Of a stretch of DNA of 64,000 nt, positions 147-61,248 are shown piece by piece. Each line of letters begins with the position of its first letter. The first letter of the stretch is position 1. The notes under the pieces are model-generated. The model saw only the letters and a list, made by a program, of their open reading frames with translations. It had not been told where the DNA came from and ran no database searches. Source of the DNA: a virus (lineage: Duplodnaviria; Caudoviricetes); IMG/VR virus record IMGVR_UViG_3300025018_000137, positions 1 to 64,000 of that record. One strand, 5' to 3'. The translations under genes were made by a program, and so were the position numbers.

Positions 147-164
147 TAGGGGTATCCCTATCTG
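143..164. other. 9-bp stem hairpin overlapping the terL stop codon
   Basis: CAGATAGGG-GTAT-CCCTATCTG. The TAG stop (158-160) lies in the stem. No U-tract follows. Confidence 0.6.
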
Positions 165-3085
165 CGCGGTCCGAGGTGTGCACGGTCAGAGGAGAACCTG
201 TCGTCTTGCTTGAGAATTCGGCCCCCCTCATCTTCGGTGTTCCAAGTCGCAGATCGATTCATCATCACAAAGAACGCGCCGGCGCAGGCGTCAGCGATAT
301 CCTTGCTGCCGGTGGGTAGGTGATCGACCTTCTCTAGCTTGGCATCCCATTCCAGCTCTCGAAGCTCAGTCGAAAGCTCGGGGTTATTCGGGAGAGCAAG
401 GCGCTCATCGTATAGTGCTTCTCTGAATGCCTTGTAGGCAGCCGAAGGGGCCTTGTCCACCGTTTGCTGAGTGGTCGGCATCCCCTGCTTTCTCCACTCC
501 TGCCTGCTCTCAAGCGAGTGCCATCCGTCGTAGCTGACACAACGGATCGGGTACCCAAGAACCTCCTTGAGCTTGCTGACGAATGCACGGACTTCCGCTA
601 GGTCTACCTCGGCGATGGCGCTAGGGCTCAGCGATACAGCCAGCTCTACTGTACCGCAGGGAAGCATCTCTATTCTGCCCCCCTTCCGTACTCTCTCCAT
701 CAGTCCGTCGAACCTGACCATTGCTATGCCGCATCGGTCCCCTGTGTGAGAAAGGTCGATGTGCACATATCGAGGGCGGGATGGGTTTTTACAGAAGTGC
801 CCGGGGACAAAGGTGGGCATCCCGTGTACCGCCAGATCGACGTTCATCTCTTCGACAATGTCGGGCAGGTCTACGAGCTTGCCCAGCTCTACTGCGGACT
901 CAATGGCAGAACGTCGGCCGATGAACGGACTCTGCGAACGAAGGGACCGACCGATCACGTCGCGTACCGCGCCTTCCGGGTCAGTGCTGAAGTCATCCCG
1001 GTACCTGCCCGGCACGTCGTAGATTTCACACTCTTTGGGTAGGTCTTCGCCCCGCTCGCGCAGCTCTACCGACTTGGCTCCTTCCGAGTAGACGCACACA
1101 TGGAAGTAGTCTTCGGGGTCGGCGTCCTCGGCAGGCTTTACCTCGTACTGCGCTCGGGCGTAGACATACACGTCCTTGATGTTGTGGTCCTTGATGTGCT
1201 GCCGTCGCACATCCGTGAACTCGCCCGGGTAGTTCGTAGACGATAGAGTGCAGATGACGCCCACATTCGGCCCATTCCTCGCGAACCGACCACTCTTCCG
1301 GCGTGTCGTCTTCGTGAAGATTTCAGTCGCTTGGTCAAACTTGGCAGAACGACCTGTCTTGGCTTGCGACCTCCTCGAATTAGCAATGACCTGCATAAAA
1401 TTGATTTCATCAATGATCGCCCCGAAAATTGCTTCACCCAAGATCGAGTCAACATCCGCACCGACCGGAGCAACACGAATGTTCTGCTCGTCGAAGCGCA
1501 TCTCCGCCTCGATGTACTTGTTCAGGCGCATGTGCGCGCGGAACCAAGGCATCTGTTCGAGGTACGTGCGCAGGGGCATGTACAGAACGTTCTTGGTTAC
1601 CTTCGGCTTAGCCGCGAAGATCGGGATGACCAACTGCGCAGCGGTGGGCAAGCCCCAATACGTCTGTGGCTTCCGCAAGCAACCCATCAGATGCAGGTGG
1701 TAGGCCGTGATGACCTTGGCTATTTCGCTCTTGCCAGTGTTGCCAGTGACAACAACTTTCCCGTTTCTCCGAGATACCCACATTCCCGTAGGAACCTTAA
1801 AGCAGTAGCAGAAGCCATCCTGCGACGGGACAGTACCTATGTTCTCTTTCTTAGAGCTGGCGAGCCTCCAAGGCTCGGACTTGACGACGTGCACCACATA
1901 GTCGGTCTTACCGTCTACTCGGTCAGAGGGGTTGATGGTGGCTCGGCGGCCAGTGGCGCAGAAGCAGTGCTGGATGAAATCAGCGCTGCCCTTGTCTCGG
2001 GTATAGAACTCGCCCCGCTTCTCCGTTCCGTCCCATTTTAGGCATTCGCTGGTCACCACCTGAAGTTGGCGCTGACTGGCCGCCCACCAGCCTTCGTAGT
2101 TCTTGTTTCGCTGTGGGGCAAGAAAAGCGACGTCAGAGTATCCGTCAGCGCGTTCATACTCGTTGTAGGGTATACCGCACTTGCTCAGGAGCATCCGAAG
2201 TCGGGCTTTCTTTCGGGCTTTCTTGAGATGAAACACGCAGTATTGAGGACGATGCCCTGCCCTCTTGTAGAAATGTCCATCGGCCATTACTGCCACCATG
2301 AGACGGATTTCGTGATCCGTCAGTGGTAGTCCTGCTCCGCCGCCAACATAGCTCCCTACAAACTCCCCGGATTTCCACCCGTGCTTGCTGGCGTTGTGCA
2401 GGACAACAATATCCTCGGCCGGACGTTCCATTAGTTCGCCAGTCTTGGCGGACCTATAGATCACTCGGTGCCCTGCGCTCAGCAACTGGTCAAACGTTCT
2501 AGTTTTGAACGAGAAGAATCGTTTGTACGGCAGCTTGACGTACTCTTCCGGGTCAACGAATTCCAGCGCCCCGTCCGCAGTGTACTGCCCTACTTTTTGC
2601 CCTGCCCATTCGCCTATAGGTACCCAACCCTCCGGGGTCAGAAACTCGGTGTCCTTATCGACGCAGCCTGTCGCCCCCATCGCCAAGAACTGAGTGTAGG
2701 CCCCGCCCGTCTTGCCTCGGAACCATCCGCTGCAGCACTCTATGATCGTGTTGCGTACCTCGGGCCACACTTCCAGATCGGTTCCGCCCATGAACTCGTC
2801 GGAGTCTAGGAAGGTCTCAATATCGACAGGTAACTGTCGTAGCTGGCCGATGAACGCGAGGTAGGACTTGTTCCCGTGCAGGGTGGCTTGGCGGATTGCG
2901 TAGATGTAATCGTCTACAAACGACAGTCTGCCGTGCTGTTGGCAGAACACCTCCGCCTGACGCTGGAACTCGGCCAGCCGTTCCTCGATCAGATCGGCCC
3001 GTTCCTGCGGGATGCCAGAGAGGGCATGCCTCGCCGGCCTGCGTCGGCGACGGACTGTGTTCGCGTAGGAGAAGGCTTCGTTCAC
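158..3085 (-). CDS. terL: Terminase large subunit, intein-containing (975-aa precursor, about 666 aa after splicing)
   Basis: Walker A GATG/TGKS (interrupted), Walker B AIIDEINF, RNase H-like nuclease motifs YVHIDLS..DRCG and SKDIADA. Directly downstream of an HTH small-subunit candidate. Confidence 0.93.
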   Translation of the reverse strand: MNEAFSYANTVRRRRRPARHALSGIPQERADLIEERLAEFQRQAEVFCQQHGRLSFVDDYIYAIRQATLHGNKSYLAFIGQLRQLPVDIETFLDSDEFMGGTDLEVWPEVRNTIIECCSGWFRGKTGGAYTQFLAMGATGCVDKDTEFLTPEGWVPIGEWAGQKVGQYTADGALEFVDPEEYVKLPYKRFFSFKTRTFDQLLSAGHRVIYRSAKTGELMERPAEDIVVLHNASKHGWKSGEFVGSYVGGGAGLPLTDHEIRLMVAVMADGHFYKRAGHRPQYCVFHLKKARKKARLRMLLSKCGIPYNEYERADGYSDVAFLAPQRNKNYEGWWAASQRQLQVVTSECLKWDGTEKRGEFYTRDKGSADFIQHCFCATGRRATINPSDRVDGKTDYVVHVVKSEPWRLASSKKENIGTVPSQDGFCYCFKVPTGMWVSRRNGKVVVTGNTGKSEIAKVITAYHLHLMGCLRKPQTYWGLPTAAQLVIPIFAAKPKVTKNVLYMPLRTYLEQMPWFRAHMRLNKYIEAEMRFDEQNIRVAPVGADVDSILGEAIFGAIIDEINFMQVIANSRRSQAKTGRSAKFDQATEIFTKTTRRKSGRFARNGPNVGVICTLSSTNYPGEFTDVRRQHIKDHNIKDVYVYARAQYEVKPAEDADPEDYFHVCVYSEGAKSVELRERGEDLPKECEIYDVPGRYRDDFSTDPEGAVRDVIGRSLRSQSPFIGRRSAIESAVELGKLVDLPDIVEEMNVDLAVHGMPTFVPGHFCKNPSRPRYVHIDLSHTGDRCGIAMVRFDGLMERVRKGGRIEMLPCGTVELAVSLSPSAIAEVDLAEVRAFVSKLKEVLGYPIRCVSYDGWHSLESRQEWRKQGMPTTQQTVDKAPSAAYKAFREALYDERLALPNNPELSTELRELEWDAKLEKVDHLPTGSKDIADACAGAFFVMMNRSATWNTEDEGGRILKQDDRFSSDRAHLGPRR
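1739..2665 (-). mobile_element. Intein (309 aa) with LAGLIDADG-like homing endonuclease, inserted in the TerL Walker A motif
   Basis: Starts CVDKDTEFLTP (Cys1 = residue 141) and ends GKVVVTGN, followed by Thr+1. Internal motifs LMVAVMADGHF and CLKWDGT. Excision restores GATGTGKS. Confidence 0.92.
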
Positions 3086-3861
3086 CCGAGCAACCTCATG
3101 CTGATCTGGTCTTCCTCTTCCATTTGCTCCACCGGAAGATCGTCTTCGATACCAGCAATGACGTTTTCCGCCAGACGTACCAGAGTTTCCAGTTGCGAGT
3201 TGCCGCCCTCTTCGCCCGCGCGGTAACGAATGACATCGAACACTCCCGCCGCTTCGAGGAACGCGGTCTGCTCCTTCTTCGCGTGGACACTCGTACGGAT
3301 GGCAGCCAGCTTCGCCGGGATCGGGGTCTTGTTGTGCGTGGCAATACGCAATGCGACGCCTGACACCTCGTCGTAGTAGCTCATCGTGGTGCCGATCAGC
3401 TCGTTTATGTTCAGGTTCGCCGCTTCGCGCCGGAGCTTTTCGTGAAGCTCTTTCCGGTCCCGCTGTACCTGACGAACACTGACGCCGAACTGCTCGGCAA
3501 TCTGGTCGAGCGGAACGTTGCGCTGAAGCAGTCGCGCCAGCAGCTTGAGCCTATACTCGCGGTAGTATTCGGGCGAGGTTTGTCGTACGTGATCCATCCG
3601 AGACGCCGGAGTGAAGTCATCGTCAGCGACGGCGGCTTGGTCAGCGTTCGCGGTCTGGGCAGCAGTAGACAGGTTGGTCCGAGCTGCCACGCGGTTTCTC
3701 GCCGCGTTACGCAAGCCTTCCACCATAGCCCGCGCCTCCTCTTCCGGACTGCTAGCAGAGCTGGCTTCCTCGATCTCCGAGACTACATCATCGACCGGGC
3801 CTTCATTCTCCGGTAGACCAGAGGAGCGGCGTCGACGACGACGGACGGTAACTACGGTCAT
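3082..3861 (-). CDS. Probable terminase small subunit (HTH DNA-binding protein)
   Basis: HTH-like VPLDQIAEQFGVSVRQVQRDRKEL. 4-bp overlap with the terL start. Confidence 0.7.
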   Translation of the reverse strand: MTVVTVRRRRRRSSGLPENEGPVDDVVSEIEEASSASSPEEEARAMVEGLRNAARNRVAARTNLSTAAQTANADQAAVADDDFTPASRMDHVRQTSPEYYREYRLKLLARLLQRNVPLDQIAEQFGVSVRQVQRDRKELHEKLRREAANLNINELIGTTMSYYDEVSGVALRIATHNKTPIPAKLAAIRTSVHAKKEQTAFLEAAGVFDVIRYRAGEEGGNSQLETLVRLAENVIAGIEDDLPVEQMEEEDQISMRLLG

Positions 3862-3868
3862 GGCTGCT

Positions 3869-13407: not shown

Positions 13408-14124
13408 TCAGGTTCTCCGTGTTCTTCTGGATCGCCGGCCCTCTTCGATGGCCAATATGCCGAGACGATCCTTCAGCAGCTCGATGATCGCCCCCTCTTC
13501 GAAGTCGCCGTCCGTCTTCACGCTGTTGGTCCAGAGACGATATACATCGGTGGGTATCCGGAAGATGAACTCCCCGAGCACGAAGCGAACGGTCTCGGGG
13601 CCGCGACCTACTACTCGCGACGGCGTGTTCTCCTGCGCCGTAAGATCACGGGATACCTCCCCGCTAAGACAGTCGTCGGCGACGGTTTGGCCTAGACAGT
13701 CGATCTCTTCCTGTGCAAAGCCGAAGTTCGTGAAATCGATTCCAGAACCGCTGAGCGCGTGAATCTCCTGCGCGAGTAGATCGAGATTCCACGTCGCCTG
13801 TTCCGCCACCTTGTTGTCGATGATCCGGAACTGGCGGATCGCCTCGGGGGATAGATGCTGCGCGAATACAGCGGGCACTTCATCCATGCCGAGAGTCTTC
13901 GCCCCCTCGACCCGAGTATGCCCCGCCACCAATACGTTGTTTCCGTCTAGGACAACCGGGACCAGAAAGCCGAACTCTTGAATGCTGTTGGCTACGGAAG
14001 CCACCGCCTCGGCATTGTCCCTCGGGTTGAACTCGTACGGCACAATGTCGTCGATACTGACGTACCGAATTTGGATTCTCGGCGGATCGTTCCGCCGGCT
14101 ACGTCTGCGGGCAACACCATTCAT
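13408..14124 (-). CDS. ParB/Srx N-terminal domain protein
   Basis: Start revised to ATG 14124 (GGAG SD). IDDIVPYEFNPRDN..FGFLVPVVLD..LVAGHTR..IIDNK. Confidence 0.85.
   Translation of the reverse strand: MNGVARRRSRRNDPPRIQIRYVSIDDIVPYEFNPRDNAEAVASVANSIQEFGFLVPVVLDGNNVLVAGHTRVEGAKTLGMDEVPAVFAQHLSPEAIRQFRIIDNKVAEQATWNLDLLAQEIHALSGSGIDFTNFGFAQEEIDCLGQTVADDCLSGEVSRDLTAQENTPSRVVGRGPETVRFVLGEFIFRIPTDVYRLWTNSVKTDGDFEEGAIIELLKDRLGILAIEEGRRSRRTRRT
13730..13745. promoter_or_regulatory. Palindromic motif, one-mismatch copy GTGAAATCGATTCCAG
   Basis: Inside the ParB coding sequence. Confidence 0.45.
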
Positions 14125-14196: not shown

Positions 14197-15498
14197 TTAC
14201 CGCGCCGTACGCTTGGCCTTCGGCTTCGCCGCAGGCTTCGCCTTCGCCGCAGGCTTGGCCTTCGCCGCAGGCTTCGGCGCGGCAACCTTGGTTGCGGCCT
14301 TGGCGGCTGCCTTCACGGCCGGCTTGGACGCCGGAGCGGCCTTGCCCGCAATCGCTTCGGCGCTGGCCTTGGCGGCTTCCCGCTTCAGACGGTTCTGCAG
14401 CCTGGTGACCGACGACACGTCGAGATTTTCCTCGGCCCATGCCGTAAGTACCTGCTCCAACAAGTCGCCGTCGTTCTCGGTGCCGAGGTGTTCCCGCGCC
14501 AGATCGAGGATGGCCCGAACGTGATGGCCTGCGGCCTCGACCAGAGAGAACCGGAAGTTGACTCTCCGAACCACGGTCTTCTCGGTAGCGCCGGAGGTCA
14601 GCGTCTGCCTGCTTTCGCTCACAGTGTCCTTCAGTTCCGAGACCGTGCTGACGGTTGCCGCCGCTATCAGGTCTGCGTGGTTCGTCTCATCGAGAACCGG
14701 GACCACGAGCGCCGCCTTGCTCCAGCCCATCGCCGCAAGATGCTCTTCGCCGTAGCCGTAGCGGCAGAACGTCGTGTAGATCGCGACGAGGTGCATGGCC
14801 ACCCGGTAGTCGAGGTGGAGGACATCCGCGCACCAACGGCGGAATCCGCCGATGCCCGCGTACTCTTCTTCCTCGGCGTACGCCTTGCTGAGACGGATGT
14901 GATAGAGCACCCCGCCGAGCTTCCACTGAGCGCTGGTGGTTTCTTCGGCCAGTTCGAGGGCCTTCTCGGTCAGGTCGCTGCCGTCGCCGATCAGTTCGAG
15001 GATTTCCTCGGACTCTTCACCTTCACCAAGAACGATCATGTTCTTGAGTTCGGGGTCGACTTCTTCGACGCGGGTTGAGGACTTCGAGGCAGCAACCGCC
15101 TTGCCCTTGGGAGCGGCCTTGGCCTTGGCCTTCGGAGCAGGGGCTTCCTGTTCCTCTTCCTCTTCGGCTTCCTCTTCCTCTTCGGCTTCTTCAGCTTCCT
15201 CTTCTTCCTCTTCTTCAGCTTCCTCTTCGGCAGGCTCGATCTCGTCCGAGATCACCGCGACGCCGACAGTCTCGGGGTTCTTCGCTGAGGGCTTCTTCTT
15301 GGCGTTGAAGTCCGGGTTGGCAACCGCGAGCACGATCGTCTCGTCATCGCCTTCTTCTTCCGGGGCCAGAACGCTGACGACTGTGTACTGCTCGCCGACT
15401 TCCAGCAACTCGCCGTTCTCGGGCTGCTCCGCATCCTCGTCGAATCCGAGGAACGTCACAACGCTGCCTTCTTCGTAGCTGATCGTATCTTCGCTCAT
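14197..15498 (-). CDS. Acidic-N / histone-H1-like Lys-Ala-Pro C-terminal protein (putative nucleoid-associated protein)
   Basis: Poly-Glu tract EEEAEEEEEEEAEE and C-terminal PAAKAKPAAKAKPAAKPKAKRTAR (18-bp DNA repeats near 14218-14280). Confidence 0.75.
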   Translation of the reverse strand: MSEDTISYEEGSVVTFLGFDEDAEQPENGELLEVGEQYTVVSVLAPEEEGDDETIVLAVANPDFNAKKKPSAKNPETVGVAVISDEIEPAEEEAEEEEEEEAEEAEEEEEAEEEEEQEAPAPKAKAKAAPKGKAVAASKSSTRVEEVDPELKNMIVLGEGEESEEILELIGDGSDLTEKALELAEETTSAQWKLGGVLYHIRLSKAYAEEEEYAGIGGFRRWCADVLHLDYRVAMHLVAIYTTFCRYGYGEEHLAAMGWSKAALVVPVLDETNHADLIAAATVSTVSELKDTVSESRQTLTSGATEKTVVRRVNFRFSLVEAAGHHVRAILDLAREHLGTENDGDLLEQVLTAWAEENLDVSSVTRLQNRLKREAAKASAEAIAGKAAPASKPAVKAAAKAATKVAAPKPAAKAKPAAKAKPAAKPKAKRTAR

Positions 15499-15602: not shown

Positions 15603-16286
15603 TTACTCGAATCGGATTGAAATCGACTTCACAATTTCCTCTGGTTGAATGGTGACGCTGCTCCGCAAGGTATCTGCACGGGATTTGGCGAGTGAATCCT
15701 TCGGCCCCTTCGGGTAGTCAGAACCTAGAACCGCTCGCCCGTACATCATCGCGGAGAACGCGTCTGCTTTGTCGAAATCAGTGAACGCTTTGTCCCATTC
15801 TTGCTTGAGAAATTTTGTTACTTCACCTTTCGAGGCATTGCCTTTCCCGGTGATGAACTTCTTCAAGGTCGATGGGGGAACGACGATTATAGGGATGTCA
15901 TCCGAAAGCACAAGGTGTTTCGTGAGGCCAGTCATTTCGGCTATCTGGGTCATCCGACTGCTGGCCCCCTTGACGGGCATACCAAAGGCGTAGCCCTCCA
16001 CGCAGACGGCATCTAGCCTTCTAATCTGTAGAACTTCCCACACTGCATGGGCAATGATGACGTTCCGGAGGGTATTGTCCGAGAAGCCCTCTACGTTCAC
16101 CGTTTTGGTCTGGACGGTACCTTCAGCGTCGACGTAGGCCATGCCCGTACTGGTCAGGGACATATCTAGGCCGAGAACTGCCGGGTCATTCGATGGAGAA
16201 GCAGGTGCTGACGAAGGGGCACGTCTTCGCGCGGGAAGAGTCTTCGGACTTGCAGTGCCGCCGGGCCGGGATTTCCTTGGTCTCAT
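15603..16286 (-). CDS. RuvC-like Holliday junction resolvase
   Basis: VLGLDMSLTSTG, VCVEGY, E..G..K, PSTLKKFITGKGNASK, DKADA. Start tentatively revised to ATG 16286. Confidence 0.85.
   Translation of the reverse strand: MRPRKSRPGGTASPKTLPARRRAPSSAPASPSNDPAVLGLDMSLTSTGMAYVDAEGTVQTKTVNVEGFSDNTLRNVIIAHAVWEVLQIRRLDAVCVEGYAFGMPVKGASSRMTQIAEMTGLTKHLVLSDDIPIIVVPPSTLKKFITGKGNASKGEVTKFLKQEWDKAFTDFDKADAFSAMMYGRAVLGSDYPKGPKDSLAKSRADTLRSSVTIQPEEIVKSISIRFE
15617..15632. promoter_or_regulatory. Palindromic motif, one-mismatch copy TTGAAATCGACTTCAC
   Basis: 25 bp upstream of the TTGACA -35, inside the 3' end of the RuvC-like gene. Confidence 0.6.
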
Positions 16287-22254: not shown

Positions 22255-22603
22255 CTTGGCTTCTCCAATGGGTTAGTATCGTTTGCTTCACTTCATCGGC
22301 TAGCAGCATCGCCGTTCTCTTGGTCAACCCAAGAAGGATCAGTCTGTCGATCCTCAAGTCGAAAAAGTCGAACAGTTCGCATTTGCCCCCGTCGATTCCA
22401 ATCGCTACCGGGAAGATGCTTGTGTCGGGAGTTTTTGCCCCGAAGCACGAAACCGGAACGACCATCATCAGGCGAATCGGAAATCTGGTTTTGGTGTGCA
22501 TCTTGGGATCGTTGATCTGATACAGCACTGGTTCCCGATTCAGGACTTTTGCGAAGATGCTGCTTTGCTGGCCCTCTACTGTCGGGGTTTTACCGACCGA
22601 AGA

Positions 22604-22612: not shown

Positions 22613-22630
22613 CACCTCTTCCACCTATCG

Positions 22631-50309: not shown

Positions 50310-50822
50310 TTACTTCCTGCGTTGACGCCGTGCCGGCAGAGCCATGTCACGCGCTTGGCGGTTCTTCTCGACCTGCGCCCGCTCCGCAGTATCAGGATGC
50401 GCTTCACCTGCCGCCAGCGCTTCCTCGCGTGCCAGCTTCGCAAGCTGCGATTCGGTCATCGTATCCGGATCGGTGCTCTCGAACACGCGGCGGTAATCTT
50501 CCACCTCTTGGTCCGTAGCCACCCGGAAGTACGGGATCATCTCGCCCTTGCGGGAGTCCGGGTCCGGTTGCTGCTGCTGAAGCAGCCGCCGACCCATCAA
50601 GGGGGTAGTACGCACGGTTTCGCCGCGTTCGATAGCGCGGCCTTGCTCCAAGTGCGAGTTCACGAATCGACTGCACCCGGACAGAACCATGTAGACGAAC
50701 TGCTTTTCGTCCTCCTGAACGATCGGGATTTCACCTACGTCGCGCAGCGGTACCGATTCCTTCGGATCGCTTCTGCGAGTTGCGGCTACGTCTGCCGCGC
50801 TTTTTCCTTTTGCACCTGCCAT
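50310..50822 (-). CDS. Hypothetical protein (170 aa)
   Basis: Between the capsid terminator and the connector gene. Confidence 0.65.
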   Translation of the reverse strand: MAGAKGKSAADVAATRRSDPKESVPLRDVGEIPIVQEDEKQFVYMVLSGCSRFVNSHLEQGRAIERGETVRTTPLMGRRLLQQQQPDPDSRKGEMIPYFRVATDQEVEDYRRVFESTDPDTMTESQLAKLAREEALAAGEAHPDTAERAQVEKNRQARDMALPARRQRRK

Positions 50823-51874: not shown

Positions 51875-53365
51875 TTACCGGCGAGCCGGGTCGCGGGCCG
51901 AAATCACCCGGGCAGCGTCCCCACGGAAGATCGATCCGCGCATCGGGTCGCGTTCCTGAATTTCGCGCTGGATGCGCTGCTCGTTCTCGTCATCGTGTTC
52001 ACCTTCGTCATCATCCGCGCGCGACACCGTTTCTTCCGCGCTCTCCTTCAGTTTGCCGACGGTCTCGTCCAACTTCTCCAGACGGGCCGAGATACCGCGA
52101 AGCACTTCGGCCAGTGCGGGTTCATCAACCGCATCCAGATCGGGAGCCGGGGCCGGGTCAGCACGAAGAGCGGCAACCACCGCTGCGGCCGTCTGGTCTG
52201 CCGTGTCCTTGGCCAACTTCTCGGCCTCGGCACGGGTGATGTACTGAGGCGCATCGTCATTCATCGCCGGCGTGTCGCCCACGGTACCTTTCGGTGCAGC
52301 GTCGGTCTTGCCTGTCATATCTTCGTTCCTCGTGTCATCATCGACAATTGTGGGGTTTTCCTGTTCGGTCTCCCCCTCCAGATCGCTGCGCACATCGGCG
52401 CTTTGATTGTTCAGGGCTCCATCGGGGGACGCGTTGCCGTCTGTGGCCCGGGGAAGTGCAGACATCATCGCCCGCAGGTACACCGAAAACTCTTGCAGAG
52501 CATTGTCTACCAGAGCTTGCCGGTCTGACAAGGGCAAATAGCTGTAGAAGAGAATGTTGTCCAGCACATCCCACAGAAAATTGACCGCCTCGCGTGCGTC
52601 CTGACTGAAGTAGTTGTCTGACAGGGCTTGGAAGAAGTCGACATGCCCCCATCCGTAGCGGCCGTACGCCTCCTCGACCACAGAGCGGTAGATCACGGCG
52701 GGAACGTCATTGCGCTTGGTCTGCGCGAACGTGCCTACCACGCCTTCCTGAACGCCGAAATCCTTGGTTTCCGCGTCGCAGTCATGGCGTACGTAGAGGA
52801 ATTCCTTGCCGATGCTGAACAAGTCTTCTTCGTTGAAAACGATTTCACAATCACGAAGGTAGTTCTCGCAATCTGCCCGGGTGGCGAACTTCTCCGCGCT
52901 GAACGTCAGCTTGACGAGACCGATGGACGGCACGTCGGGCGGCACGTCTTCTTGCATCTCGGACCGGGAAATCTGAGCGGTGATCCCGTCCGAAATCATG
53001 ATCGTGGACGAATCGCCCAGTAGGGCTTCGTCCAGCGCGATCCGACGGAACATGACAGCCGAGTCGGAAACCACGATCTCGTACTCGTCTTCCTTCAGCC
53101 CGAAGCTGGTGAAGTGCGACTGCGCATCTTCTTCGCTGGTACCTGCAGGCAGCGTGATCGTCAGGAGCGGAGTGTCATACGTCCGCGCCTTCTTCTTGCC
53201 GTCCGAGCTACGCACAATCGCAAAGGGGCTCCGATTGGCGGGACGCTTCACGATTGAAAGATAGTCGGGGCGTTCCAGCTCCATGAGGGAAGCCGCGCGA
53301 ACCTCAGTATCCACAGCGCGAGACACATCACGCCGAACAACCTTCTTACGCCGCTTTACTACCAT
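51875..53365 (-). CDS. Scaffold/prohead-associated protein
   Basis: Start revised to MVVKRRKK (53365, GGAG SD). N-terminal YLSIVKRPAN resembles the prohead-protease C-terminal motif; acidic coiled C-terminus upstream of the capsid gene. Confidence 0.7.
   Translation of the reverse strand: MVVKRRKKVVRRDVSRAVDTEVRAASLMELERPDYLSIVKRPANRSPFAIVRSSDGKKKARTYDTPLLTITLPAGTSEEDAQSHFTSFGLKEDEYEIVVSDSAVMFRRIALDEALLGDSSTIMISDGITAQISRSEMQEDVPPDVPSIGLVKLTFSAEKFATRADCENYLRDCEIVFNEEDLFSIGKEFLYVRHDCDAETKDFGVQEGVVGTFAQTKRNDVPAVIYRSVVEEAYGRYGWGHVDFFQALSDNYFSQDAREAVNFLWDVLDNILFYSYLPLSDRQALVDNALQEFSVYLRAMMSALPRATDGNASPDGALNNQSADVRSDLEGETEQENPTIVDDDTRNEDMTGKTDAAPKGTVGDTPAMNDDAPQYITRAEAEKLAKDTADQTAAAVVAALRADPAPAPDLDAVDEPALAEVLRGISARLEKLDETVGKLKESAEETVSRADDDEGEHDDENEQRIQREIQERDPMRGSIFRGDAARVISARDPARR
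52833..52848. promoter_or_regulatory. Palindromic motif copy TTGAAAACGATTTCAC
   Basis: Exact core, inside the scaffold gene. Confidence 0.65.
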
Positions 53366-53951: not shown

Positions 53952-53967
53952 CTGAAATCGATTTCAC
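53952..53967. promoter_or_regulatory. Palindromic motif copy CTGAAATCGATTTCAC
   Basis: Exact core, abutting the XkdF-like ATG where an SD would normally be. Confidence 0.75.
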
Positions 53968-54023: not shown

Positions 54024-55763
54024 TTATGCAACAGCAGCAGTTGGCGAGGAGTAGCCGGAATGGTCCGGGGTGGCGTCTGCGCCGCCTTCGTAGGTCAGGT
54101 CCGTTCCGTCGTCTGCGTTCACCAAACGGGATACAACGCACCCCAGAGGCCAGCCTTCCGTAGAGCGGAGCGTGATCGAGGGGAGGTCTTTGCCAGCGTA
54201 GATACCGGCGTTGCCGGCCAGCAGCACGACGGAATCTCCTGCCTCGTCGATGTAGCCCGATAGCAACAGATTCTCGTTCATCACGTCCGGGGAAGTCCCG
54301 TCTACGTGCATCGACTCCACGCCCGATACGATGCTCGCCATGAAGTTTGGCAAGGTCTCCACCGCGATCGCGTCTTCCAGCGCGTCGTTCGTCGAGGACA
54401 AAATGTCATCGATTACATCGGCTGACCAGAGGTTGGCTAGGTACAGCGTGCTGACTGGAACTCCGTTCAGCGTCTCTGCCTTGGAGTACGCAAACCAGAA
54501 GCGCTCGCCCGCCGTACCCTGCGACCATACTCCGTGATGGCGGGCAACGTCAGTACGCGTATCGCCCAGCCCCGGGAGCTTGGCAAGAGACGTCGCCGCC
54601 GACACGTTCCTCGGCCATAGCAAGGTCCAGCCGGACTGCACTGTGCCCTCGTAGTACCCGAGAATCTGGTCTCCCGCTACGGTCAGCGCCGTACCGTCGC
54701 GGCCTACCGCGAGGATGTTGATGTTCCCGGGGGAGCCGCTTGCGCGGTTCAGTCTGCAAGGGACAAGCTGCGAACTCATGGAGTTGGAATTGGCGTGTTC
54801 CAGCGTCCATGCACCGCCGACACTGTACGGGAGGGCTTGGCTGTATATCCCGGTATCTACCACTAGGTAGAAGCGACCCTTGAACTCTACCGCCTGAAGC
54901 ACGCCAACGGACGGGGAGCCTAGAGTGGCTTGGGATATCTTGCTCGCAACGGCATTCCAAGAAAAGATGCCGAACCCTTCGGTGCGCTGGTAAACCCAGA
55001 CAGCGTTGGTGGTGTCCCAGTTTGTCTTGTGGACGAAATATGCCCAGCGAGCGTTCGTGGTGTCGTAGACAATCCTCCCGGTGAGCATACGCTGAGTGCC
55101 GCCCGGAACAGTCCGGGTGGTAGGAGAGATGACGGTCTCGAAGGTCAGTCCGTCGAAGGTGGCAAGCACACCTTCGATGTCGTTGCCCGCCGCGTTACGG
55201 TACCAATACTGGATGCCCAGCATTCCGTTTGCGGCGGTGATCTCGATGTGCGGTGCGCCGAATACGTCTGCGGCCGGCGTGGCGTCCATCGGCCGCAGTG
55301 CTTTCCCTGTCTTCAGGCCCATCGTGTCCTGAATAGCGACGGGGGGAGGAAACCATGTGTATCCCCTGTCACTGGAGAACAACAGCTCGTCCCTACCAAA
55401 CACCCAGTTCCGCACAACTACCGCGAGCAGTCCTCTTTGCGGGTGAGGCACATCGCGGACCTTCTCGATGGTTCCGGCTGTGATACGCCCTACCAGAGTG
55501 GTACCTGTATCCCACTGTTTTGCAGTGGTCCCCTCTTGGGCGCGTTCGAGCGTTAGTACGTCGCCAGCCCGGGCGGTGACCTTGATGATCTCCCAGTCTG
55601 TCTCGAGGGTACTGCCAACTGCCCCGGTCAGCAGCAGGTATTCATCGCCGGTCAAGTCTCCAATCCGGGCACCGTGCCCGGAAGACAGAGAACACGATGT
55701 CTGGGCGATAAAGAGCGTGGACGCCAGTGTTACCTGCAGATTGTTTCGGTATACCTGCACCAT
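54024..55763 (-). CDS. Fibre/decoration-like virion protein (579 aa)
   Basis: N-terminus WEIIKVTARAGDVLTLERAQEGT..W..G..GRITAG is typical of phage fibre attachment domains; beta-propeller-like remainder. Confidence 0.65.
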   Translation of the reverse strand: MVQVYRNNLQVTLASTLFIAQTSCSLSSGHGARIGDLTGDEYLLLTGAVGSTLETDWEIIKVTARAGDVLTLERAQEGTTAKQWDTGTTLVGRITAGTIEKVRDVPHPQRGLLAVVVRNWVFGRDELLFSSDRGYTWFPPPVAIQDTMGLKTGKALRPMDATPAADVFGAPHIEITAANGMLGIQYWYRNAAGNDIEGVLATFDGLTFETVISPTTRTVPGGTQRMLTGRIVYDTTNARWAYFVHKTNWDTTNAVWVYQRTEGFGIFSWNAVASKISQATLGSPSVGVLQAVEFKGRFYLVVDTGIYSQALPYSVGGAWTLEHANSNSMSSQLVPCRLNRASGSPGNINILAVGRDGTALTVAGDQILGYYEGTVQSGWTLLWPRNVSAATSLAKLPGLGDTRTDVARHHGVWSQGTAGERFWFAYSKAETLNGVPVSTLYLANLWSADVIDDILSSTNDALEDAIAVETLPNFMASIVSGVESMHVDGTSPDVMNENLLLSGYIDEAGDSVVLLAGNAGIYAGKDLPSITLRSTEGWPLGCVVSRLVNADDGTDLTYEGGADATPDHSGYSSPTAAVA

Positions 55764-57490
55764 TACCGAGTGCTCACGATCTGTGCCGTCTGGTCCCTAC
55801 TTGGTTCGCCGGCCCGGTCTCTCGGGCCATCCTTTTCTGGGTCAGCTCCGCCGGGCGATCCGTCCTGCATTTCCCTATCGTTGGCGTCCGTTCTGCGAAG
55901 TGACAGAGACAACGGGCGATCCATCCACTCTTCCCAGCCCTCTGCGCCCATCTTCGGGTATTGCGCGATTCGGACCTGCATCTGCTGGTTGATGAGATCG
56001 ACGGCTTTACGCGGGGTCAGAGCCCCCATTGAGTTGGCTTCGCGCAGCGCTTTTACTACTTCTGCCGGATCGGTCAGTTTTGGACCTTTACTCTCGATCT
56101 TCACCGTCTTCAGGTTCAGGCCAGCTTCATGATTGACGAAGGCGTTGTTCAGCCAGTCGTTGTGTGCCGCCCTGTTCGGCAGGAACACTTGCATCTCCGC
56201 CAGAAACGCAGATACGTTCGCCGTGGCGAAAGTCACATCCTGCGATTCGCCAGTGATGATCGGGGGTAAGCGGAACGCAGAGCGCAGCTTGGCCCGGTTC
56301 TGTTCGTCGTACGTGCGGAACAGCCCGTCGCTTGGACGCTGATCTGACATCTTCTCGATGCGTAGCTGGGCTACGCCCCCGTCATCCAGACCTTGGCCTT
56401 CGCTAATCGCCTCCAGAAGCATCATTTTGTTCTGCCGGCCTCTGCCGCCAGACTCGATGACGTTTTTCAGTTCCTCGAACGAAGCGCGGGTGAGACGACC
56501 ATTGGATACTGTGATGATGGACGGCGGGACAGTGTTGTCCTCGAAGTAGCGAAGGTTCACTTCTTCCGATTCCCGCGAGCCCATAATCGTAGGCGCGAGA
56601 TGAATCCAGCGCGGCATGCCGTACGGGTCGTCGCCTTCTTGAGTGCGCCACAGGATTTCGGTAGCCTTGTACTTCTCCGAGATTCGCCCGGTCTCTCTCG
56701 ACTGGTAGTTACCCGTGCGCCAGTCCATTGTTCTCGGGTCGCCGAACTCCTTGAACCATACGATCTGGTTGGCGGTGCGCTGCACGAACTTGCGGAACCG
56801 CCTGCGCTCTCGCACACGGGATCGCTCGCCCCCGCGTTCGATCTCCCTGACCACTTCCACAGTCTTGCGCTGCCGCGATGTCATCTGGAGACTCGACGAG
56901 GACACATGCTTGAGCATGGTGGCCTTGCCCGCCCGATTCCTGACCACTTCCAGAGCGCGAGCCCCGTGCTTCTCGAAATCGAAAATCTGCTTCTGCTCGA
57001 TCTGGGAGAACGAGTTGTCGGTATCTGCGTGTTCGAGCCACGACTTCAGCGTAGCTTCTTCTACGGGGTCGATCTCCACGCCTTCCGCGAAGGCGACGAC
57101 CTTGGAACCGTAACCAGCGATGTTGGTCTTCATCGCGTCGACGAGTTGGGGCAGCATGTTCGATCGGCTGTAGAGATAGTTGACAGTCGATACTGCCACC
57201 GATCTTTCTAGCATCGTGCCAGAAGAAGAACCGAATCCACTGCGGGACTCTTCCGGGCTAGCTGCGCGGCCCTCGTCCTCTCGGATGAACGATGCGTCCA
57301 TGCGGCTGTTCATGCGGTCCATGCGGCGCTCGTCAGGCGACCCGCTGGGTAGCCCTATGATGTTGCGCAACTGCTTATCGGCCCGCCTGCGGCGACGTAT
57401 GGACTCGCTTACGCCGTCCTGCACTGCTCGGCGTCTACGGGAAGGCGGGGTGGTGCTGATGCCGAGGCGTGCGTCGTAGAATTCACTCAT
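55763..57490 (-). CDS. Portal protein (PBSX/XkdE-like)
   Basis: Start revised to MSEFY (57490). LEVVRN..GK, YGMPRW, N.RYFEDNTVP..I.V.G, FRLPP..G..TFATA. Confidence 0.88.
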   Translation of the reverse strand: MSEFYDARLGISTTPPSRRRRAVQDGVSESIRRRRRADKQLRNIIGLPSGSPDERRMDRMNSRMDASFIREDEGRAASPEESRSGFGSSSGTMLERSVAVSTVNYLYSRSNMLPQLVDAMKTNIAGYGSKVVAFAEGVEIDPVEEATLKSWLEHADTDNSFSQIEQKQIFDFEKHGARALEVVRNRAGKATMLKHVSSSSLQMTSRQRKTVEVVREIERGGERSRVRERRRFRKFVQRTANQIVWFKEFGDPRTMDWRTGNYQSRETGRISEKYKATEILWRTQEGDDPYGMPRWIHLAPTIMGSRESEEVNLRYFEDNTVPPSIITVSNGRLTRASFEELKNVIESGGRGRQNKMMLLEAISEGQGLDDGGVAQLRIEKMSDQRPSDGLFRTYDEQNRAKLRSAFRLPPIITGESQDVTFATANVSAFLAEMQVFLPNRAAHNDWLNNAFVNHEAGLNLKTVKIESKGPKLTDPAEVVKALREANSMGALTPRKAVDLINQQMQVRIAQYPKMGAEGWEEWMDRPLSLSLRRTDANDREMQDGSPGGADPEKDGPRDRAGEPSRDQTAQIVSTR

Positions 57491-57921: not shown

Positions 57922-58168
57922 TCAGGATGCATTTTCCTTGTCCTCGACCTGCTTCATCATCCGTACCAGATGCGCGTACAAGTCGCCCCGGGTGGGCATA
58001 AGCACGCGCAATGTCTGCATCTTCCGGATTTTTCTGGCCCGGTACGACACAGACAACTCGAAGTGAGACGTGCCGTCCGGCTGTTCCACCCGGTTGCCTA
58101 CGTGTATCGGCAGATCGCCGTAGCTGGAGCGCACTATGTACACCGAGCTTATGCCGGACTCGACCCCC
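57922..58168 (-). CDS. Hypothetical protein (start uncertain)
   Basis: Track ORF 57922-58317; GTG 58168 abuts the upstream stop. Confidence 0.4.
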
Positions 58169-58169
58169 A

Positions 58170-58547
58170 CTATGCCGTACTTCCCGGCTTTCGCCTGCGA
58201 CGCGGCGGCAACGAGTCGACGGACGAACGCTTTCTTCTCCGAGGCACGACGGGTTGCGATTCCTGCTGCTGCTGCATCTCCGAACGCCGTATCTCCGGCA
58301 GATACTTGAATTCCCACTGCTCTACAATCCTCCCCACTGATTTCGGGTCTTCCGGGTAGTAGCCGGACAGAAACCCCTTCACGAACCCCGGCCGATTGTC
58401 GAACCGGCTACCTTTTTCTCCTTCTACGCGGAGCAGCATCTGAGTCGCCCGCTCCAGAAGTTGCGCCTCTCGCGCTAGTCTTTCTTCCCTGCGGCTGGGC
58501 TTCTGCGCCCCCGGACGCTTGCTCGGCAGTTTCTTCCTCTTCGGCAT
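58170..58547 (-). CDS. Basic hypothetical protein
   Basis: Start MPKRKK (58547), GAGG SD. Confidence 0.55.
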   Translation of the reverse strand: MPKRKKLPSKRPGAQKPSRREERLAREAQLLERATQMLLRVEGEKGSRFDNRPGFVKGFLSGYYPEDPKSVGRIVEQWEFKYLPEIRRSEMQQQQESQPVVPRRRKRSSVDSLPPRRRRKPGSTA

Positions 58548-58857
58548 GCTGTGTCTTACCTCGTTTCTTGCCTGCACTTCCGTGCATGGTGTTCTTGCCC
58601 ATCCGAAACGCGTAGAGCGGGCAGCTCGTCGCCGGGCAGTCTGCTATCGCCCGGACCATGCCGCCCATGCATTGTACGCAAAAAGCCCGGATGCCAGTGA
58701 TAGGGCTGCTGATCTTATCGATGTACTCGTCGACAAGCTCCTGCTGCCGGGCTATCACGCTGTCCATCGCCCGGTCTTCCTCGTCCAACTCCGGTTCTAC
58801 GACAACCGGCGGTGGCAGAGGTTCGGGCTTCTTCTTCTTCCTTCTCGATACCGTCAT
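58408..58857 (-). CDS. Hypothetical Cys-cluster (Zn-binding-like) protein
   Basis: Start MTVSRRKKKK (58857, ATGA overlap). IRAFCVQCMGG...DCPATSCPLYAFRMG. Confidence 0.7.
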   Translation of the reverse strand: MTVSRRKKKKPEPLPPPVVVEPELDEEDRAMDSVIARQQELVDEYIDKISSPITGIRAFCVQCMGGMVRAIADCPATSCPLYAFRMGKNTMHGSAGKKRGKTQHAEEEETAEQASGGAEAQPQGRKTSARGATSGAGDSDAAPRRRRKR

Positions 58858-60727: not shown

Positions 60728-60747
60728 TCTGTGCGCTCCTATCCATG

Positions 60748-61248
60748 TCAGATGTAATCGATTTCACCATCGTCTCCCGAGTCGAGAAGCGAGATTTCTA
60801 GGTTCGTGGTCGCGTATATGTACCCGTCAGGAAGCATATCGCGACGCACGCCCATTTCGGTGAGACTACGTGTCAGCTCGTCGAGCATGGGCTGCCGGAA
60901 GTGGCCAACCAGCCCTTCATTCAAGGTCGCAAACTCCTCCGCCGCTCTACGCATACCGCTTGTTTGGTAGGTGGTGCGGGCTATGTCGGAAACAGAGTGC
61001 GACTCCGAGACGTAATGCAAGATCACCGCTACCTGTACCGCCAGAGTATGGGCCATGCCCTCCGCAGCCTGAACCCGGGCCGAAAGTCGAACGACTTCCT
61101 GCGCCAAGTCCTGCAAACGTCGCTGGTCAGCCCGGGTACCTGCTGCGGCACCGGCGCGTCCGGATGCTCTGCCTATCGATACCTTGGCTCTCTGAGCAGT
61201 ACGAGTAGGCTTCTTCTTCCGACGACGTACAGGTCTGTCGGTCATCAA
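60748..61248 (-). CDS. Hypothetical coiled-coil protein (166 aa)
   Basis: GGAGG SD, overlap with the upstream stop. Confidence 0.65.
   Translation of the reverse strand: MMTDRPVRRRKKKPTRTAQRAKVSIGRASGRAGAAAGTRADQRRLQDLAQEVVRLSARVQAAEGMAHTLAVQVAVILHYVSESHSVSDIARTTYQTSGMRRAAEEFATLNEGLVGHFRQPMLDELTRSLTEMGVRRDMLPDGYIYATTNLEISLLDSGDDGEIDYI
60752..60767. promoter_or_regulatory. Palindromic motif copy ATGTAATCGATTTCAC
   Basis: Exact core, in the last codons of 60748-61248 and 25 bp upstream of the next ATG. Confidence 0.7.

Follow-up and report, generated by a model that had tools for sequence, protein, structure and literature searches.

Polybasic terminal tails on unrelated DNA-acting and packaging proteins as a heritable trait of a Samunavirus-like siphovirus lineage

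Introduction

Disordered basic tails and arms, of which the N-terminal arms of homeodomains, the tails of histones and HMG proteins and the arginine-rich motifs of viral proteins are examples, are flexible elements that add nonspecific affinity for nucleic acid, and in which charge and position are conserved and sequence poorly so. To our knowledge bacterial proteins have them less often than eukaryotic ones, and we know of no report that describes them as a coordinated trait of one phage, from its replication and recombination proteins to terminase, portal and scaffold.

Among more specific systems, gp32 of phage T4 combines a basic N-domain bearing the 'LAST' motif, (Lys/Arg)3(Ser/Thr)2 with the sequence K-R-K-S-T, with an acidic C-domain onto which other proteins of replication and recombination dock (PMC12893549). 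In the phi29 terminal protein, the N-terminal domain binds DNA regardless of sequence and thereby localises to the nucleoid (PMC4357725), and NLS-like sequences have been described in phage terminal proteins (PMC4357725, PMC3609834). Nucleolar proteins carry Arg-rich linear motifs (R-motifs) that bind the acidic tracts of nucleophosmin (PMC4786410).

A sequence-only reading of the window, by which is meant the whole 64,000-nucleotide stretch of viral DNA analysed here, had noted Arg/Lys-rich tags at the ends of about 20 unrelated proteins and proposed that they constitute a shared sorting code. The present analysis examines those tags in the phage and its relatives, and compares them with the systems outlined above.

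Materials and Methods

The gene call was uniform, with all 88 of 88 genes on the minus strand; gene starts were taken from a simple in-house caller, and single N-terminal tag calls may therefore be wrong. Runs of at least four K/R residues were counted as terminal when located no more than 30 residues from a terminus, and compared with within-protein shuffles. A net-charge score of +4 or +5 and above per 8 residues, no more than 25 residues from an end, was determined for 85 proteins with a cut-off of 60 residues, CsrA (58 aa) falling below the cut-off and hence being left out. Controls consisted of GC-matched random viral contigs and of RecA-centred modules from unrelated phages. An acidic tract was defined as at least nine D/E in 12 residues.

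The phage belongs to a siphovirus lineage of Samunavirus-like phages and uncultured relatives. The record extends to 75 kb at an estimated completeness of 76% and complete relatives to 85–104 kb, figures that render the earlier description of a small siphovirus inexact. The polymerase is family A-like, and no sliding-clamp gene was seen among the proteins scanned (about half of the proteome).

Results

Terminal Lys/Arg clusters were confirmed for 16 of the 17 carriers named beforehand, in each case at or near the terminus of a credible gene. Runs of at least four K/R residues numbered eight at N-termini, three at C-termini and two internally, against shuffle means of 0.6, 0.63 and 3.0 respectively; the terminal total was thus 11 against approximately 1.2 expected, with no internal excess. 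By the net-charge score, 23 of the 85 proteins, around a quarter, reached at least +4 in 8 residues near an end (7.3 expected), and 13 (15%) reached at least +5 (1.4 expected). The latter figure compares with 9/267 in GC-matched contigs (p = 3e-4), 29/700 in one control set (p = 2e-4) and 77/1671 in another (p = 2.5e-4), corresponding to 3–5% of control proteins overall. Relative to two independent control sets, the tags were in excess by a factor of three to ten. The N-terminal excess was absent in controls (1/267 at +5), and basic C-termini were mildly commoner in control phages than in their shuffles. The polybasic tails are a real trait, selected at the protein level.

Carriers were concentrated in the replication/recombination and packaging/head modules, where they accounted for 18 of 38 proteins versus two of 28 in the tail and lysis modules (p = 4e-4). 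Both of the latter were weak matches, which upholds the claimed absence of tags from capsid, tail-tube, tail-tip and lysis proteins; Acb2 (42608–42844) was likewise without a tag. When compared with each other, the carriers exhibited no shared sequence similarity. Tags were as frequent at C-termini as at N-termini, several carriers held two, and no fixed motif beyond charge, nor any fixed non-basic position, was found in them. The tails are predicted to be disordered, and are S/T- and P-rich and hydrophobic-poor, a context absent around the basic termini of controls. Where checked, they lay beyond Pfam limits and in stretches with pLDDT below 50, as the proposed location outside folded domains implies.

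The packaging and head module, in which an S78_2/XkdF protease gene is located between the portal and scaffold genes, contained the following features:

3029–3052, minus strand: TerL N-terminal polybasic tag (gene 158–3085, aa 12–19, net +6)
3823–3846, minus strand: TerS N-terminal Arg run, if the ATG at 3861 is the start (gene 3082–3861)
50313–50336, minus strand: C-terminal tag of a 170-aa head-module protein (gene 50310–50822, net +5)
51980–52015, minus strand: acidic tract of the putative scaffold (aa 451–462)
53333–53356, minus strand: N-terminal tag of the putative scaffold (gene 51875–53365, aa 4–11, net +6)
57380–57451, minus strand: portal, two Arg runs within its disordered first 40 residues (gene 55763–57490)
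58411–58434, minus strand: C-terminal tag of a 149-aa protein (gene 58408–58857, net +6)
58828–58851, minus strand: 149-aa protein as above, N-terminal tag (net +6)
61213–61236, minus strand: N-terminal tag of a 165-aa protein (gene 60748–61245, net +6)

The N-terminus of TerL scored +4 to +5 in four of six relatives. For TerS, the HTH domain of which occupies aa 104–143, the caller preferred a start at 3726, and the tag is present only from the ATG at 3861, a start favoured by the N-termini of +4 to +6 recorded in 6/6 orthologs. The portal start was the same in the database gene call (P0001), with pLDDT below 50 over aa 1–89, and a GGAGG ribosome-binding site precedes the ATG of the 165-aa protein. 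Scores of at least +4 were obtained for 22 of 53 putative scaffold orthologs (4/6 in whole-genome relatives), and orthologs of the 149-aa protein were basic at the N-terminus in 5/11 cases and at the C-terminus in 4/11. The final two codons of gene 50310–50822 overlap the ribosome-binding site of the next gene. Tags had also been assigned to an ORF at 58170; the alternative frame of gene 57922–58317 codes better at that position, and those tags are therefore probably an out-of-frame artefact.

The features located in the replication/recombination module and in other proteins were:

13414–13437, minus strand: ParB-N protein C-terminal tag (aa 230–237, net +6)
14092–14115, minus strand: ParB-N protein N-terminal tag (gene 13408–14124, aa 4–11, net +5)
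14209–14232, minus strand: Lys/Ala/Pro-rich (H1-like) C-terminal tail (protein 14197–15498)
17083–17106, minus strand: N-terminal basic tail of a PD-(D/E)XK-type exonuclease (gene 16186–17118, net +4)
18580–18603, minus strand: RecA N-terminal tag (gene 17479–18612, aa 4–11, net +6)
18924–18947, minus strand: N-terminal tag, form (K/R)4(S/T)3, of a 116-aa protein (gene 18615–18965, net +5)
19451–19474, minus strand: helicase C-terminal stretch, weakly basic (gene 19397–20953, net +4)
19485–19505, minus strand: N-terminal Arg cluster of a putative 'MerR-like' ORF (18987–19535)
22634–22678, minus strand: Toprim primase C-terminal tag (gene 22631–23896, aa 407–421)
23927–23950, minus strand: C-terminal tag of a 167-aa protein (gene 23921–24424, net +5)
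24338–24406, minus strand: 167-aa protein as above, basic tail at the N-terminus (aa 7–29)
29059–29082, minus strand: basic C-terminal stretch of a 195-aa protein (gene 29014–29601, net +5)
31419–31469, minus strand: double C-terminal tag of a 223-aa protein (gene 31416–32087, aa 207–223)
32101–32175, minus strand: C-terminal basic tail of a Ycf46-like AAA+ ATPase (gene 32089–33888, aa 572–596)

Pfam matches begin at aa 18 in the ParB-N protein (ParB_N) and at aa 19 in RecA, the Toprim domain ends at around aa 326, and the AAA lid domain of the ATPase at aa 504. Charge was retained in 6/6 orthologs by the C-termini of the H1-like protein and of the ATPase (both +3 to +5) and by the 116-aa protein (+3 to +7); orthologs of the exonuclease scored +3 to +5, those of RecA within the lineage +3 to +6, and the C-terminal tags of helicase orthologs were stronger (+3 to +5) than that recorded here. 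Basic N-termini were found in the ParB-N orthologs of G001, G003 and PA_L9; the G001 ortholog of the 167-aa protein combined an N-terminus of +5 with a Lys-rich C-terminal end, and the primase tag was variable between orthologs. The ParB-N C-terminal tag overlaps in part the Shine-Dalgarno site of the next gene. The frame of ORF 18987–19535 is coding and its start must be 19535, 19508 or 19481, the tag being present with the first two only; its label is only putative since it has no Pfam match.

Poly-acidic tracts were located in the putative scaffold (above), in the H1-like protein and in a gp32-like SSB (gene 21112–22254), which is basic at both ends:

15142–15237, minus strand: poly-acidic tract of protein 14197–15498 (aa 88–119), a candidate polyanionic partner
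21115–21186, minus strand: basic C-terminal tip of the SSB (aa 357–380)
21193–21291, minus strand: poly-acidic tract of the SSB (aa 322–354)
22147–22242, minus strand: basic disordered N-terminal region of the SSB

The top four structural matches of the SSB were T4 and RB69 gp32 (Z 5.1–5.8), the core giving a VIA Z of 5.8 over 168 aligned residues at an rmsd of 4.9; one His (H128) and two Cys (C155, C158), all conserved and located in the core, recall the gp32 zinc site. Its exact start is uncertain (22254 or 22101), aa 1–71 have pLDDT below 50, and its orthologs end in Arg-rich tips. The acidic tract of the H1-like protein appears in the DNA as a GAA/GAG-type repeat family, D1. Acidic tracts were present in 3/88 proteins here and in one to three proteins of most relatives, as against 4/2594 control proteins.

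Across orthologs, a tag recurred at the same terminus in 56% of cases versus 11% for untagged termini (odds ratio 10.4, p = 3e-17), and only 5/70 distant phage RecA homologs were basic at the tail position. The most widely conserved N-terminal tags were those of the portal (74%) and scaffold (42%), each with more than 50 orthologs. At least four K/R were present in the first 15 residues of 87 of the 99 portal homologs with complete N-termini, at a mean of 4.55 versus 2.03 for internal 15-mers. Lys and Arg proved interchangeable: tag sequences could not be aligned between orthologs, and the Arg share of tags largely tracked the K/R usage of each genome, with a modest Arg preference, both of which fit charge-based binding. 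A semi-regular basic-basic-aliphatic-basic-basic pattern in about one third of portal homologs, and an R-I-R-R-S/T-like core repeated on several proteins of PA_L9, hint at more specificity than bare charge.

Tagging stayed strong in the closest relatives, tags of net +5 occurring in 17% of proteins at GC 0.50 and 11.7% at GC 0.40, and was weak in a relative at GC 0.61, with 3.6%; tag codons were a mixture of CGN and AGR, and no repeated DNA cassette was found behind them. The CGN/AGG codon bias originally considered does not account for the tags, which are rare in GC-matched controls and remain frequent in relatives at GC 0.40–0.50. The tails are a heritable trait of the lineage and not a by-product of composition.

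Discussion

The proposed sorting code stands in part: the tags are real, selected at the protein level, common to unrelated proteins that act on DNA or take part in packaging, and missing from those of the tail and of lysis. Sorting to a compartment or condensate, proteolysis and encapsidation found no support, and 'code' overstates tags that have charge in common but no set motif. Plain electrostatic tethering to DNA is the more economical account of the data. A disordered polycationic tail at the extreme N- or C-terminus would bind polyanions, chiefly DNA, nonspecifically and act as a short tether, raising the local concentration on phage DNA of RecA, ParB, primase, helicase, exonuclease, gp32-like SSB, terminase subunits and portal; what would count is charge and placement at an end, not exact sequence, Lys and Arg serving equally. 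That the tails of some 15–20 unrelated proteins are such tethers is the likeliest reading, to which we give about even credence; that DNA is the ligand, and that the carriers benefit by being concentrated on it, is what we infer. Precedents are the phi29 terminal protein (PMC4357725) and the K-R-K-S-T motif in the basic N-domain of gp32 (PMC12893549). Against it, the putative scaffold and the AAA+ ATPase are not obvious DNA binders and yet have tags among the best conserved, and the unusual wealth of poly-acidic tracts in the lineage offers an alternative ligand.

Those tracts underlie a less probable reading, which we consider rather doubtful, whereby the basic tails would be client motifs that bind acidic stretches of three proteins: the gp32-like SSB (its C-terminal tail), the H1-like 433-aa protein (its acidic block) and the scaffold (its acidic end). 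Tails, tracts and DNA would together form a multivalent network or condensate in which proteins of replication, recombination and packaging collect. The enrichment of acidic tracts lends circumstantial support to the suspected link with the tags. An acidic tail on an SSB of gp32 type, the paired tags that multivalency requires, and the eukaryotic analogue of Arg-rich motifs and nucleophosmin (PMC4786410) point in the same direction, as does L190, the most distant relative examined, which lacks both the acidic SSB tail and tags on neighbouring proteins. Over seven genomes tag frequency rises with acidic-tract length, a trend short of significance (rho 0.61, p = 0.15), and since these genomes are related the correlation is weak evidence; G002, moreover, has many tags yet only one short tract. 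The tracts also lie in proteins with basic tails of their own, and may consequently act intramolecularly as autoinhibitors, as has been proposed for gp32, and we know of no condensate in siphoviruses of this size.

It is improbable that the tags are assembly or encapsidation signals, those of at least the portal, the scaffold and the proteins at 58408, 60748 and 50310 either guiding their carriers into the procapsid or to DNA that has been packaged, or marking sites trimmed by an XkdF-type prohead protease, with the replication-module tags an unrelated DNA-binding phenomenon. The wide conservation of the portal and scaffold tags, the protease gene between these two genes and the opposite charges of the scaffold, basic at the N-terminus and acidic in the C-terminal region, would suit such a role; however, enzymes of replication and recombination make up half of the carriers, C-terminal tags are as common as N-terminal ones, no cleavage motif lies beside the tags, none is present on the major capsid protein or on any tail protein, and no virion proteome was found for a relative.

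Least credible of all, and already largely refuted, is a functionless by-product, due to the purine richness of the coding strand, to biased Arg codons, to Shine-Dalgarno sites within the ends of upstream genes, to 5' codons rich in A/G that favour initiation, or to mis-called starts: the coding strand is purine-rich, a few C-terminal tags (50310, ParB C-terminus, last residues of the AAA protein) overlap the next ribosome-binding site, control phages have their mild C-terminal excess and the 58170 tags are read out of frame, but a compositional cause is excluded by the shuffles and by the GC-matched controls, controls have no N-terminal excess, tagging persists at GC 0.40–0.50, conservation is confined to particular orthologous termini, capsid and tail-tube proteins, expected to be the most abundant structural proteins, are untagged, and most C-terminal tags far exceed a ribosome-binding site in length or precede a gap.

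With respect to known systems, the tethers proposed here resemble T4 gp32, a phage protein of DNA metabolism that has a short basic motif and then Ser/Thr at its extreme N-terminus, several tags having the LAST-like form of a K/R run and then S/T, although the strict pattern was matched by only 4/85 proteins versus 2.1% of controls. The SSB likewise parallels the basic N-domain and acidic, disordered, recruiting C-tail of gp32 with its basic N-region and hyper-acidic tail, but adds a basic tip after the acidic tract; and whereas LAST was described for one protein and for SSB cooperativity, basic tails are found here at either end of approximately 15–20 unrelated proteins. As in the phi29 terminal protein, basic residues of phage replication proteins, there conferring sequence-independent DNA binding, resemble a eukaryotic NLS; the phi29 case concerns one protein class of protein-primed phages and a folded or helical domain instead of a short end-tail, and lacks the proteome-wide pattern. 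The nucleophosmin system shares the distribution of Arg-rich motifs over many unrelated proteins and of poly-acidic tracts over a few abundant nucleic-acid-binding ones, and hence an electrostatic client-scaffold logic; the resemblance is one of design only, between a eukaryotic system with demonstrated phase separation and one known from sequence. Like the tails of homeodomains, histones and HMG proteins, the tags are flexible and positively charged, and it is their charge and position that are kept.

Genome context and gene calls

The parent IMG/VR record, 75,142 bp in length with completeness estimated at 76%, is represented here by its initial 64 kb, throughout which the GC content is 0.58. 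Genes were identified with our own caller, which is based on codon usage and Shine-Dalgarno sequences, was applied identically to every genome studied, and may misplace individual starts. All 88 genes called lie on the minus strand; the coding strand is purine-rich, and the GC and AT skews of the plus strand are negative along the whole window. The nearest isolated relatives are the Pseudomonas phages of Samunavirus (capsid identity of 49% to both PA_L9 and SM1), followed by siphoviruses of the Vibrio SIO-2/VHS1-like, Streptomyces and Rhodobacter kinds (80-110 kb), and a megablast search of the DNA against isolated phages returned no match. Annotation confirmed RecA, ParB-N, the Toprim primase and the AAA+ ATPase, as well as a polymerase of the family-A type, DnaB, a second helicase, two resolvases, an exonuclease, an XkdF-type prohead protease and a PBSX-type portal. 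The principal proteins considered are:

158-3085, minus strand, terminase subunit TerL
13408-14124, minus strand, ParB-N
14197-15498, minus strand, H1-like protein
17479-18612, minus strand, RecA
19397-20953, minus strand, helicase
21112-22254, minus strand, candidate gp32-like SSB
22631-23896, minus strand, primase
32089-33888, minus strand, AAA+ ATPase (Ycf46-like)
51875-53365, minus strand, putative scaffold
55763-57490, minus strand, portal

Several features of this map were recorded in passing. TerL is 975 aa long, compared with 643 aa in Samunavirus, and its N-terminal half (aa 134-471) matches a PhoH-like PHROG; upstream of its GTG the frame stays open for 155 codons devoid of ATG, GTG or TTG, and overlaps TerS in another frame. 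At 19397-19535 the last 85-139 nt of the helicase gene are shared, in a different frame, with the ORF that follows it, an unusually long overlap. The stretch 22255-22624, part of ORF 22049-22624, has a good coding score (+15) and was dropped by the caller on account of its overlap with the SSB start: either the map lacks a gene of ~110 aa, or the true SSB start is the downstream one at 22101. At 58318-58440, between genes 57922-58317 and 58408-58857, a third frame codes best; the stretch could be intergenic, or could hold a small unannotated gene whose start would be the ATG at 58439.

Repeated elements were also evident. The 14-bp palindrome TGAAATCGATTTCA occurs within 1396-60766 at 19 sites with no more than two mismatches (0.14 expected), among them 23910-23923 and 53953-53966; many of the copies immediately precede a gene start or fall at a gene end, and they are probably a network of operators or other protein-binding sites. 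Three tandem direct repeats of 22-23 nt, two of them identical, occupy 29707-29773 between genes 29775-30164 and 29014-29601; their iteron-like appearance suggests a possible origin or regulator site. Two 35-nt direct repeats, 91% identical and 53 nt apart, follow closely after the TerL stop codon, at 68-155.

Enrichment of basic clusters at protein ends

A sequence-only reading of this DNA had described Arg/Lys-rich clusters (hereafter tags) near the ends of about 20 unrelated proteins. Counting bore this out: runs of at least four Arg/Lys residues numbered eight at N-termini, three at C-termini (in each case within 30 residues of the end) and two internally, against 0.6, 0.63 and 3.0 respectively when residues were shuffled within each protein. 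Measured as net charge in an 8-residue window lying within 25 residues of an end, 23 of 85 proteins reached at least +4 (7.3 expected) and 13 at least +5 (1.4 expected), in a proteome whose composition (6.9% Arg, 4.0% Lys) is not unusually basic.

Two control sets, made up of fragmentary loci, were taken through the same pipeline, namely 72 random viral contigs picked through a GC-rich 14-mer and 72 RecA-centred loci from unrelated phages, and tags of at least +5 were found on 3-5% of their proteins compared with 15.3% here (Fisher p 2e-4 to 3e-4). The contrast was largest for N-terminal tags, carried by 8 of 85 proteins here and by 1 of 267 in the GC-matched set. Relative to shuffles the controls displayed only a mild excess of basic C-termini, part of which probably arises from ribosome-binding sites inside the ends of upstream genes; a few tags in the window likewise overlap such sites.

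Five whole genomes of relatives (G001-G005) and PA_L9, which are not independent samples, were then compared.

Frequency of +5 tags in relatives of differing GC content
Genome, GC content, proteins with +5 tags
G001, 0.50, 17%
G002, 0.40, 11.7%
PA_L9, 0.55, 7.1%
G005, 0.59, 6.2%
G003, 0.48, 5.2%
G004, 0.61, 3.6%

By the +4 measure, 21-32% of proteins were tagged in all six relatives compared with 11-16% in the controls. Tagging follows lineage, not GC. The frequency differs from what arginine-codon bias gives, whereas a match with that expectation would have undone the earlier proposal; both the GC-matched controls and the relatives spanning a range of GC exclude codon bias or GC as the cause.

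Nature of the tags and of their carriers

Tags either begin 3-7 residues past the initiator Met or finish at the stop codon, and half of them are C-terminal. Among their non-basic residues Ser/Thr is raised (in most of these genomes 0.20-0.26 compared with 0.13-0.15), Pro is enriched as well, and hydrophobic (0.25 compared with 0.35) and acidic residues are depleted; the basic termini of control proteins have an ordinary composition. Arg and Lys mostly substitute for one another; the proportion of Arg tracks the usage of each genome with a modest preference for Arg, and the codons are a CGN/AGR mix. A repeated DNA cassette was rejected as the origin of the tags, the codons being heterogeneous and no repeat family covering them, as was paralogy, there being no similarity among the carriers. 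Genome-wide, the Ser/Thr residues beside basic runs create R-R-x-S/T sites of the type preferred by basophilic protein kinases.

The tags fall outside Pfam domain limits in RecA, ParB, the primase and the AAA protein, and in the models of the SSB and portal they occupy stretches of pLDDT below 50. Carriers are concentrated in DNA-facing modules (replication/recombination, 12 of 22; packaging/head, 6 of 16), which together differ from tail/lysis/fibre proteins at p 4e-4; in the early/unknown group, 3 of 19 are carriers. The reported absence of tags from tail and lysis proteins is borne out by a count of only 2 of 28 in the tail/lysis/fibre module. The capsid was correctly described as untagged: a basic terminus is absent from the major capsid protein and, among its 48 orthologs, from 47, a finding which also excludes a protamine-like or ARM genome-binding capsid tail.

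For 16 of the 17 carriers named individually, the clusters do lie at the end of a credible gene. The Arg run of TerS is present only if translation begins at the ATG at 3861, a start supported because all six orthologs are strongly basic at the N-terminus. ORF 18987-19535 proved to be truly coding, but must start far enough upstream for the tag to be included from two of the three starts available to it; no support was found for its 'MerR' label. The exception was ORF 58170, whose two clusters were probably read out of frame, since gene 57922-58317 has the better-scoring frame at that point.

Conservation across orthologs

A terminus tagged here was also tagged in the orthologs from the six relatives in 56% of cases (49/87), compared with 11% (32/291) for untagged termini, giving an odds ratio of 10.4 for same-terminus conservation (p 3e-17). 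The tags of orthologs cannot be aligned, and only charge and position are conserved. Steadiest at the N-terminus were those of the portal, scaffold, TerS, TerL, RecA, ParB, the exonuclease and a 116-aa protein, and at the C-terminus those of the AAA+ ATPase, helicase, SSB and H1-like protein. Others shift: polymerase, helicase and RuvC are tagged in relatives but at best weakly in this phage, the only one in which the primase tag is strong. In all, some 15 orthologous families are tagged, including portal, scaffold, both terminase subunits, RecA, ParB and the AAA+ ATPase.

Across 58 portal-homolog loci, a basic N-terminus was found in 74% of portals and 42% of scaffolds, but in only 0-9% of capsid, protease, tail-tube and neighbouring proteins. 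At least four Arg/Lys are present in the first 15 residues of 87 of the 99 database homologs of the portal whose N-terminus is complete, and 34 show a partial basic-aliphatic-basic pattern. Distant phage RecA homologs begin directly at the N-terminal helix and are basic there in only 5 of 70 cases, so that related phages retain the tags and distant homologs lack them, the check that the earlier reading had proposed.

The candidate gp32-like SSB and poly-acidic tracts

The SSB label of protein 21112-22254 finds no Pfam match. Its AlphaFold core (aa 101-294) aligns best with T4/RB69 gp32 (VIA Z 5.8; 168 residues; rmsd 4.9); the four best-ranked VIA matches were all gp32, and other OB-fold SSBs came next. 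The core also contains one His and two Cys that are conserved (H128, C155, C158) and recall the gp32 zinc site. Foldseek with the same model gave no match at E ≤0.001, gp32 emerging only through VIA re-alignment, and phmmer searches against the PDB with portal and SSB gave no match for either. The gp32 alignment and the His and Cys residues lend moderate support to a gp32-like SSB. The protein also has an N-region that is basic and disordered, and an acidic tract of 33 residues; in relatives, its orthologs (L187:6261-7496 and L188:6425-7639) contain Arg/Ser-rich repeats alternating with acidic blocks.

Poly-acidic tracts occur on 3 of 88 proteins here (the SSB tail, the H1-like protein and the scaffold) compared with 4 of 2594 in controls, and the lineage is ~10-30x richer in them than the controls. 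A complex prediction for SSB aa 290-380, the acidic tail, with RecA gave no answer (score 0.00) and weighs neither way, fuzzy electrostatic contacts being beyond what such models score.

Interpretation

The data make it an even prospect that the tags are flexible polycationic tethers binding a polyanion, of which DNA is the simplest candidate because the carriers act on or face DNA. Such tails would hold the proteins of replication, recombination and packaging to the genome of the phage.

Docking of the polybasic tails on the poly-acidic tracts of the lineage, a sharper form of the earlier suggestion that acidic tracts act as partners, is the main alternative, a tentative one for which the evidence is only circumstantial: basic tails and poly-acidic tracts co-occur in the lineage, one distant relative lacks both, and a trend across related genomes is non-significant. 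The design recalls the acidic tail of T4 gp32 (PMC12893549) and the Arg-motif clients of nucleophosmin (PMC4786410). It is unlikely, though conceivable, that a two-part charge code builds, together with phage DNA, a membrane-less replication and packaging factory, in which polybasic end-tails on replication, recombination, terminase, portal and scaffold proteins would form one part and poly-acidic tracts on the gp32-like SSB, the H1-like DNA-binding protein and the scaffold the other. On that reading, phosphorylation of the Ser/Thr beside the basic runs might tune the charge. An assembly or encapsidation role, which would concern the head-module subset of tags, is improbable, and a functionless by-product is largely excluded.

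One device is carried jointly by some 15 orthologous families and was retained while genome GC drifted from 0.40 to 0.61. This suggests a shared physical requirement, that of being on DNA or co-located with it, which ties packaging to replication and recombination in phages without the nucleus-like shells that jumbo phages have. Since the lineage has cultivable Pseudomonas phages (Samunavirus), the idea is directly testable. For annotators of this lineage it offers a working rule, that a protein with a basic end-tail is DNA-facing, and an aid in choosing the start codon.

Comparison with known systems

The tags were compared with several established signals. Tat signals, in which an N-terminal RR motif precedes a hydrophobic h-region and a cleavage site, are incompatible with the polar, acidic or Pro-rich sequence that follows the tags, the depletion of hydrophobic residues and the C-terminal position of half of them. 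A short linear motif binding a hub or clamp was rejected, since it would require fixed non-charged positions common to the tags, of which there are none, and ortholog tags cannot be aligned. As to a cognate hub, no sliding clamp emerged when PHROG and Pfam were run on about 40 of the 88 proteins, several proteins remaining without assignment. Propeptides of the T4 CTS type, which are N-terminal on head-packaged proteins and removed at a protease motif, are disfavoured by tags on replication enzymes and at C-termini and by the lack of a common flanking motif. The LAST motif of T4 gp32 (three Lys/Arg, then two Ser/Thr) mediates cooperative ssDNA binding; a pattern like it is present in the termini of 4 of 85 proteins here, 8 of 112 in G001 and 15 of 700 in controls, most tags being basic runs without the Ser/Thr pair of that motif. 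The K-K/R-x-K/R core of a classical NLS occurs in most tags, but the likeness is compositional only: such signals are read by importins for nuclear import, and the relatives infect bacteria (Pseudomonas, Vibrio).

Disordered basic tails are a known kind of device, familiar one protein at a time. We know of no description of a coordinated, lineage-conserved tag set over some 15 orthologous families, and a literature search for a comparable set found no such account; searches on Samunavirus biology, basic portal N-termini and SIO-2-like virion proteomes yielded nothing usable.

Two single-protein precedents are established. In the phi29 terminal protein, basic residues bind DNA independently of sequence and direct the protein to the nucleoid, and such stretches of phage terminal proteins look like NLSs (PMC4357725, PMC3609834). 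T4 gp32 requires an N-terminal K-R-K-S-T motif, and its acidic tail is where other proteins of the replisome and of recombination dock (PMC12893549); the SSB at 21112-22254 likewise joins a basic N-region and an acidic tract, a resemblance confined to that one protein. Nucleophosmin pairs acidic tracts with Arg-motif clients (PMC4786410), and a client-scaffold system of this type involves direct multivalent binding and phase separation as well as poly-acidic tracts on partner proteins; of these features, poly-acidic tracts are present here, at 3/88 compared with 4/2594 in controls.
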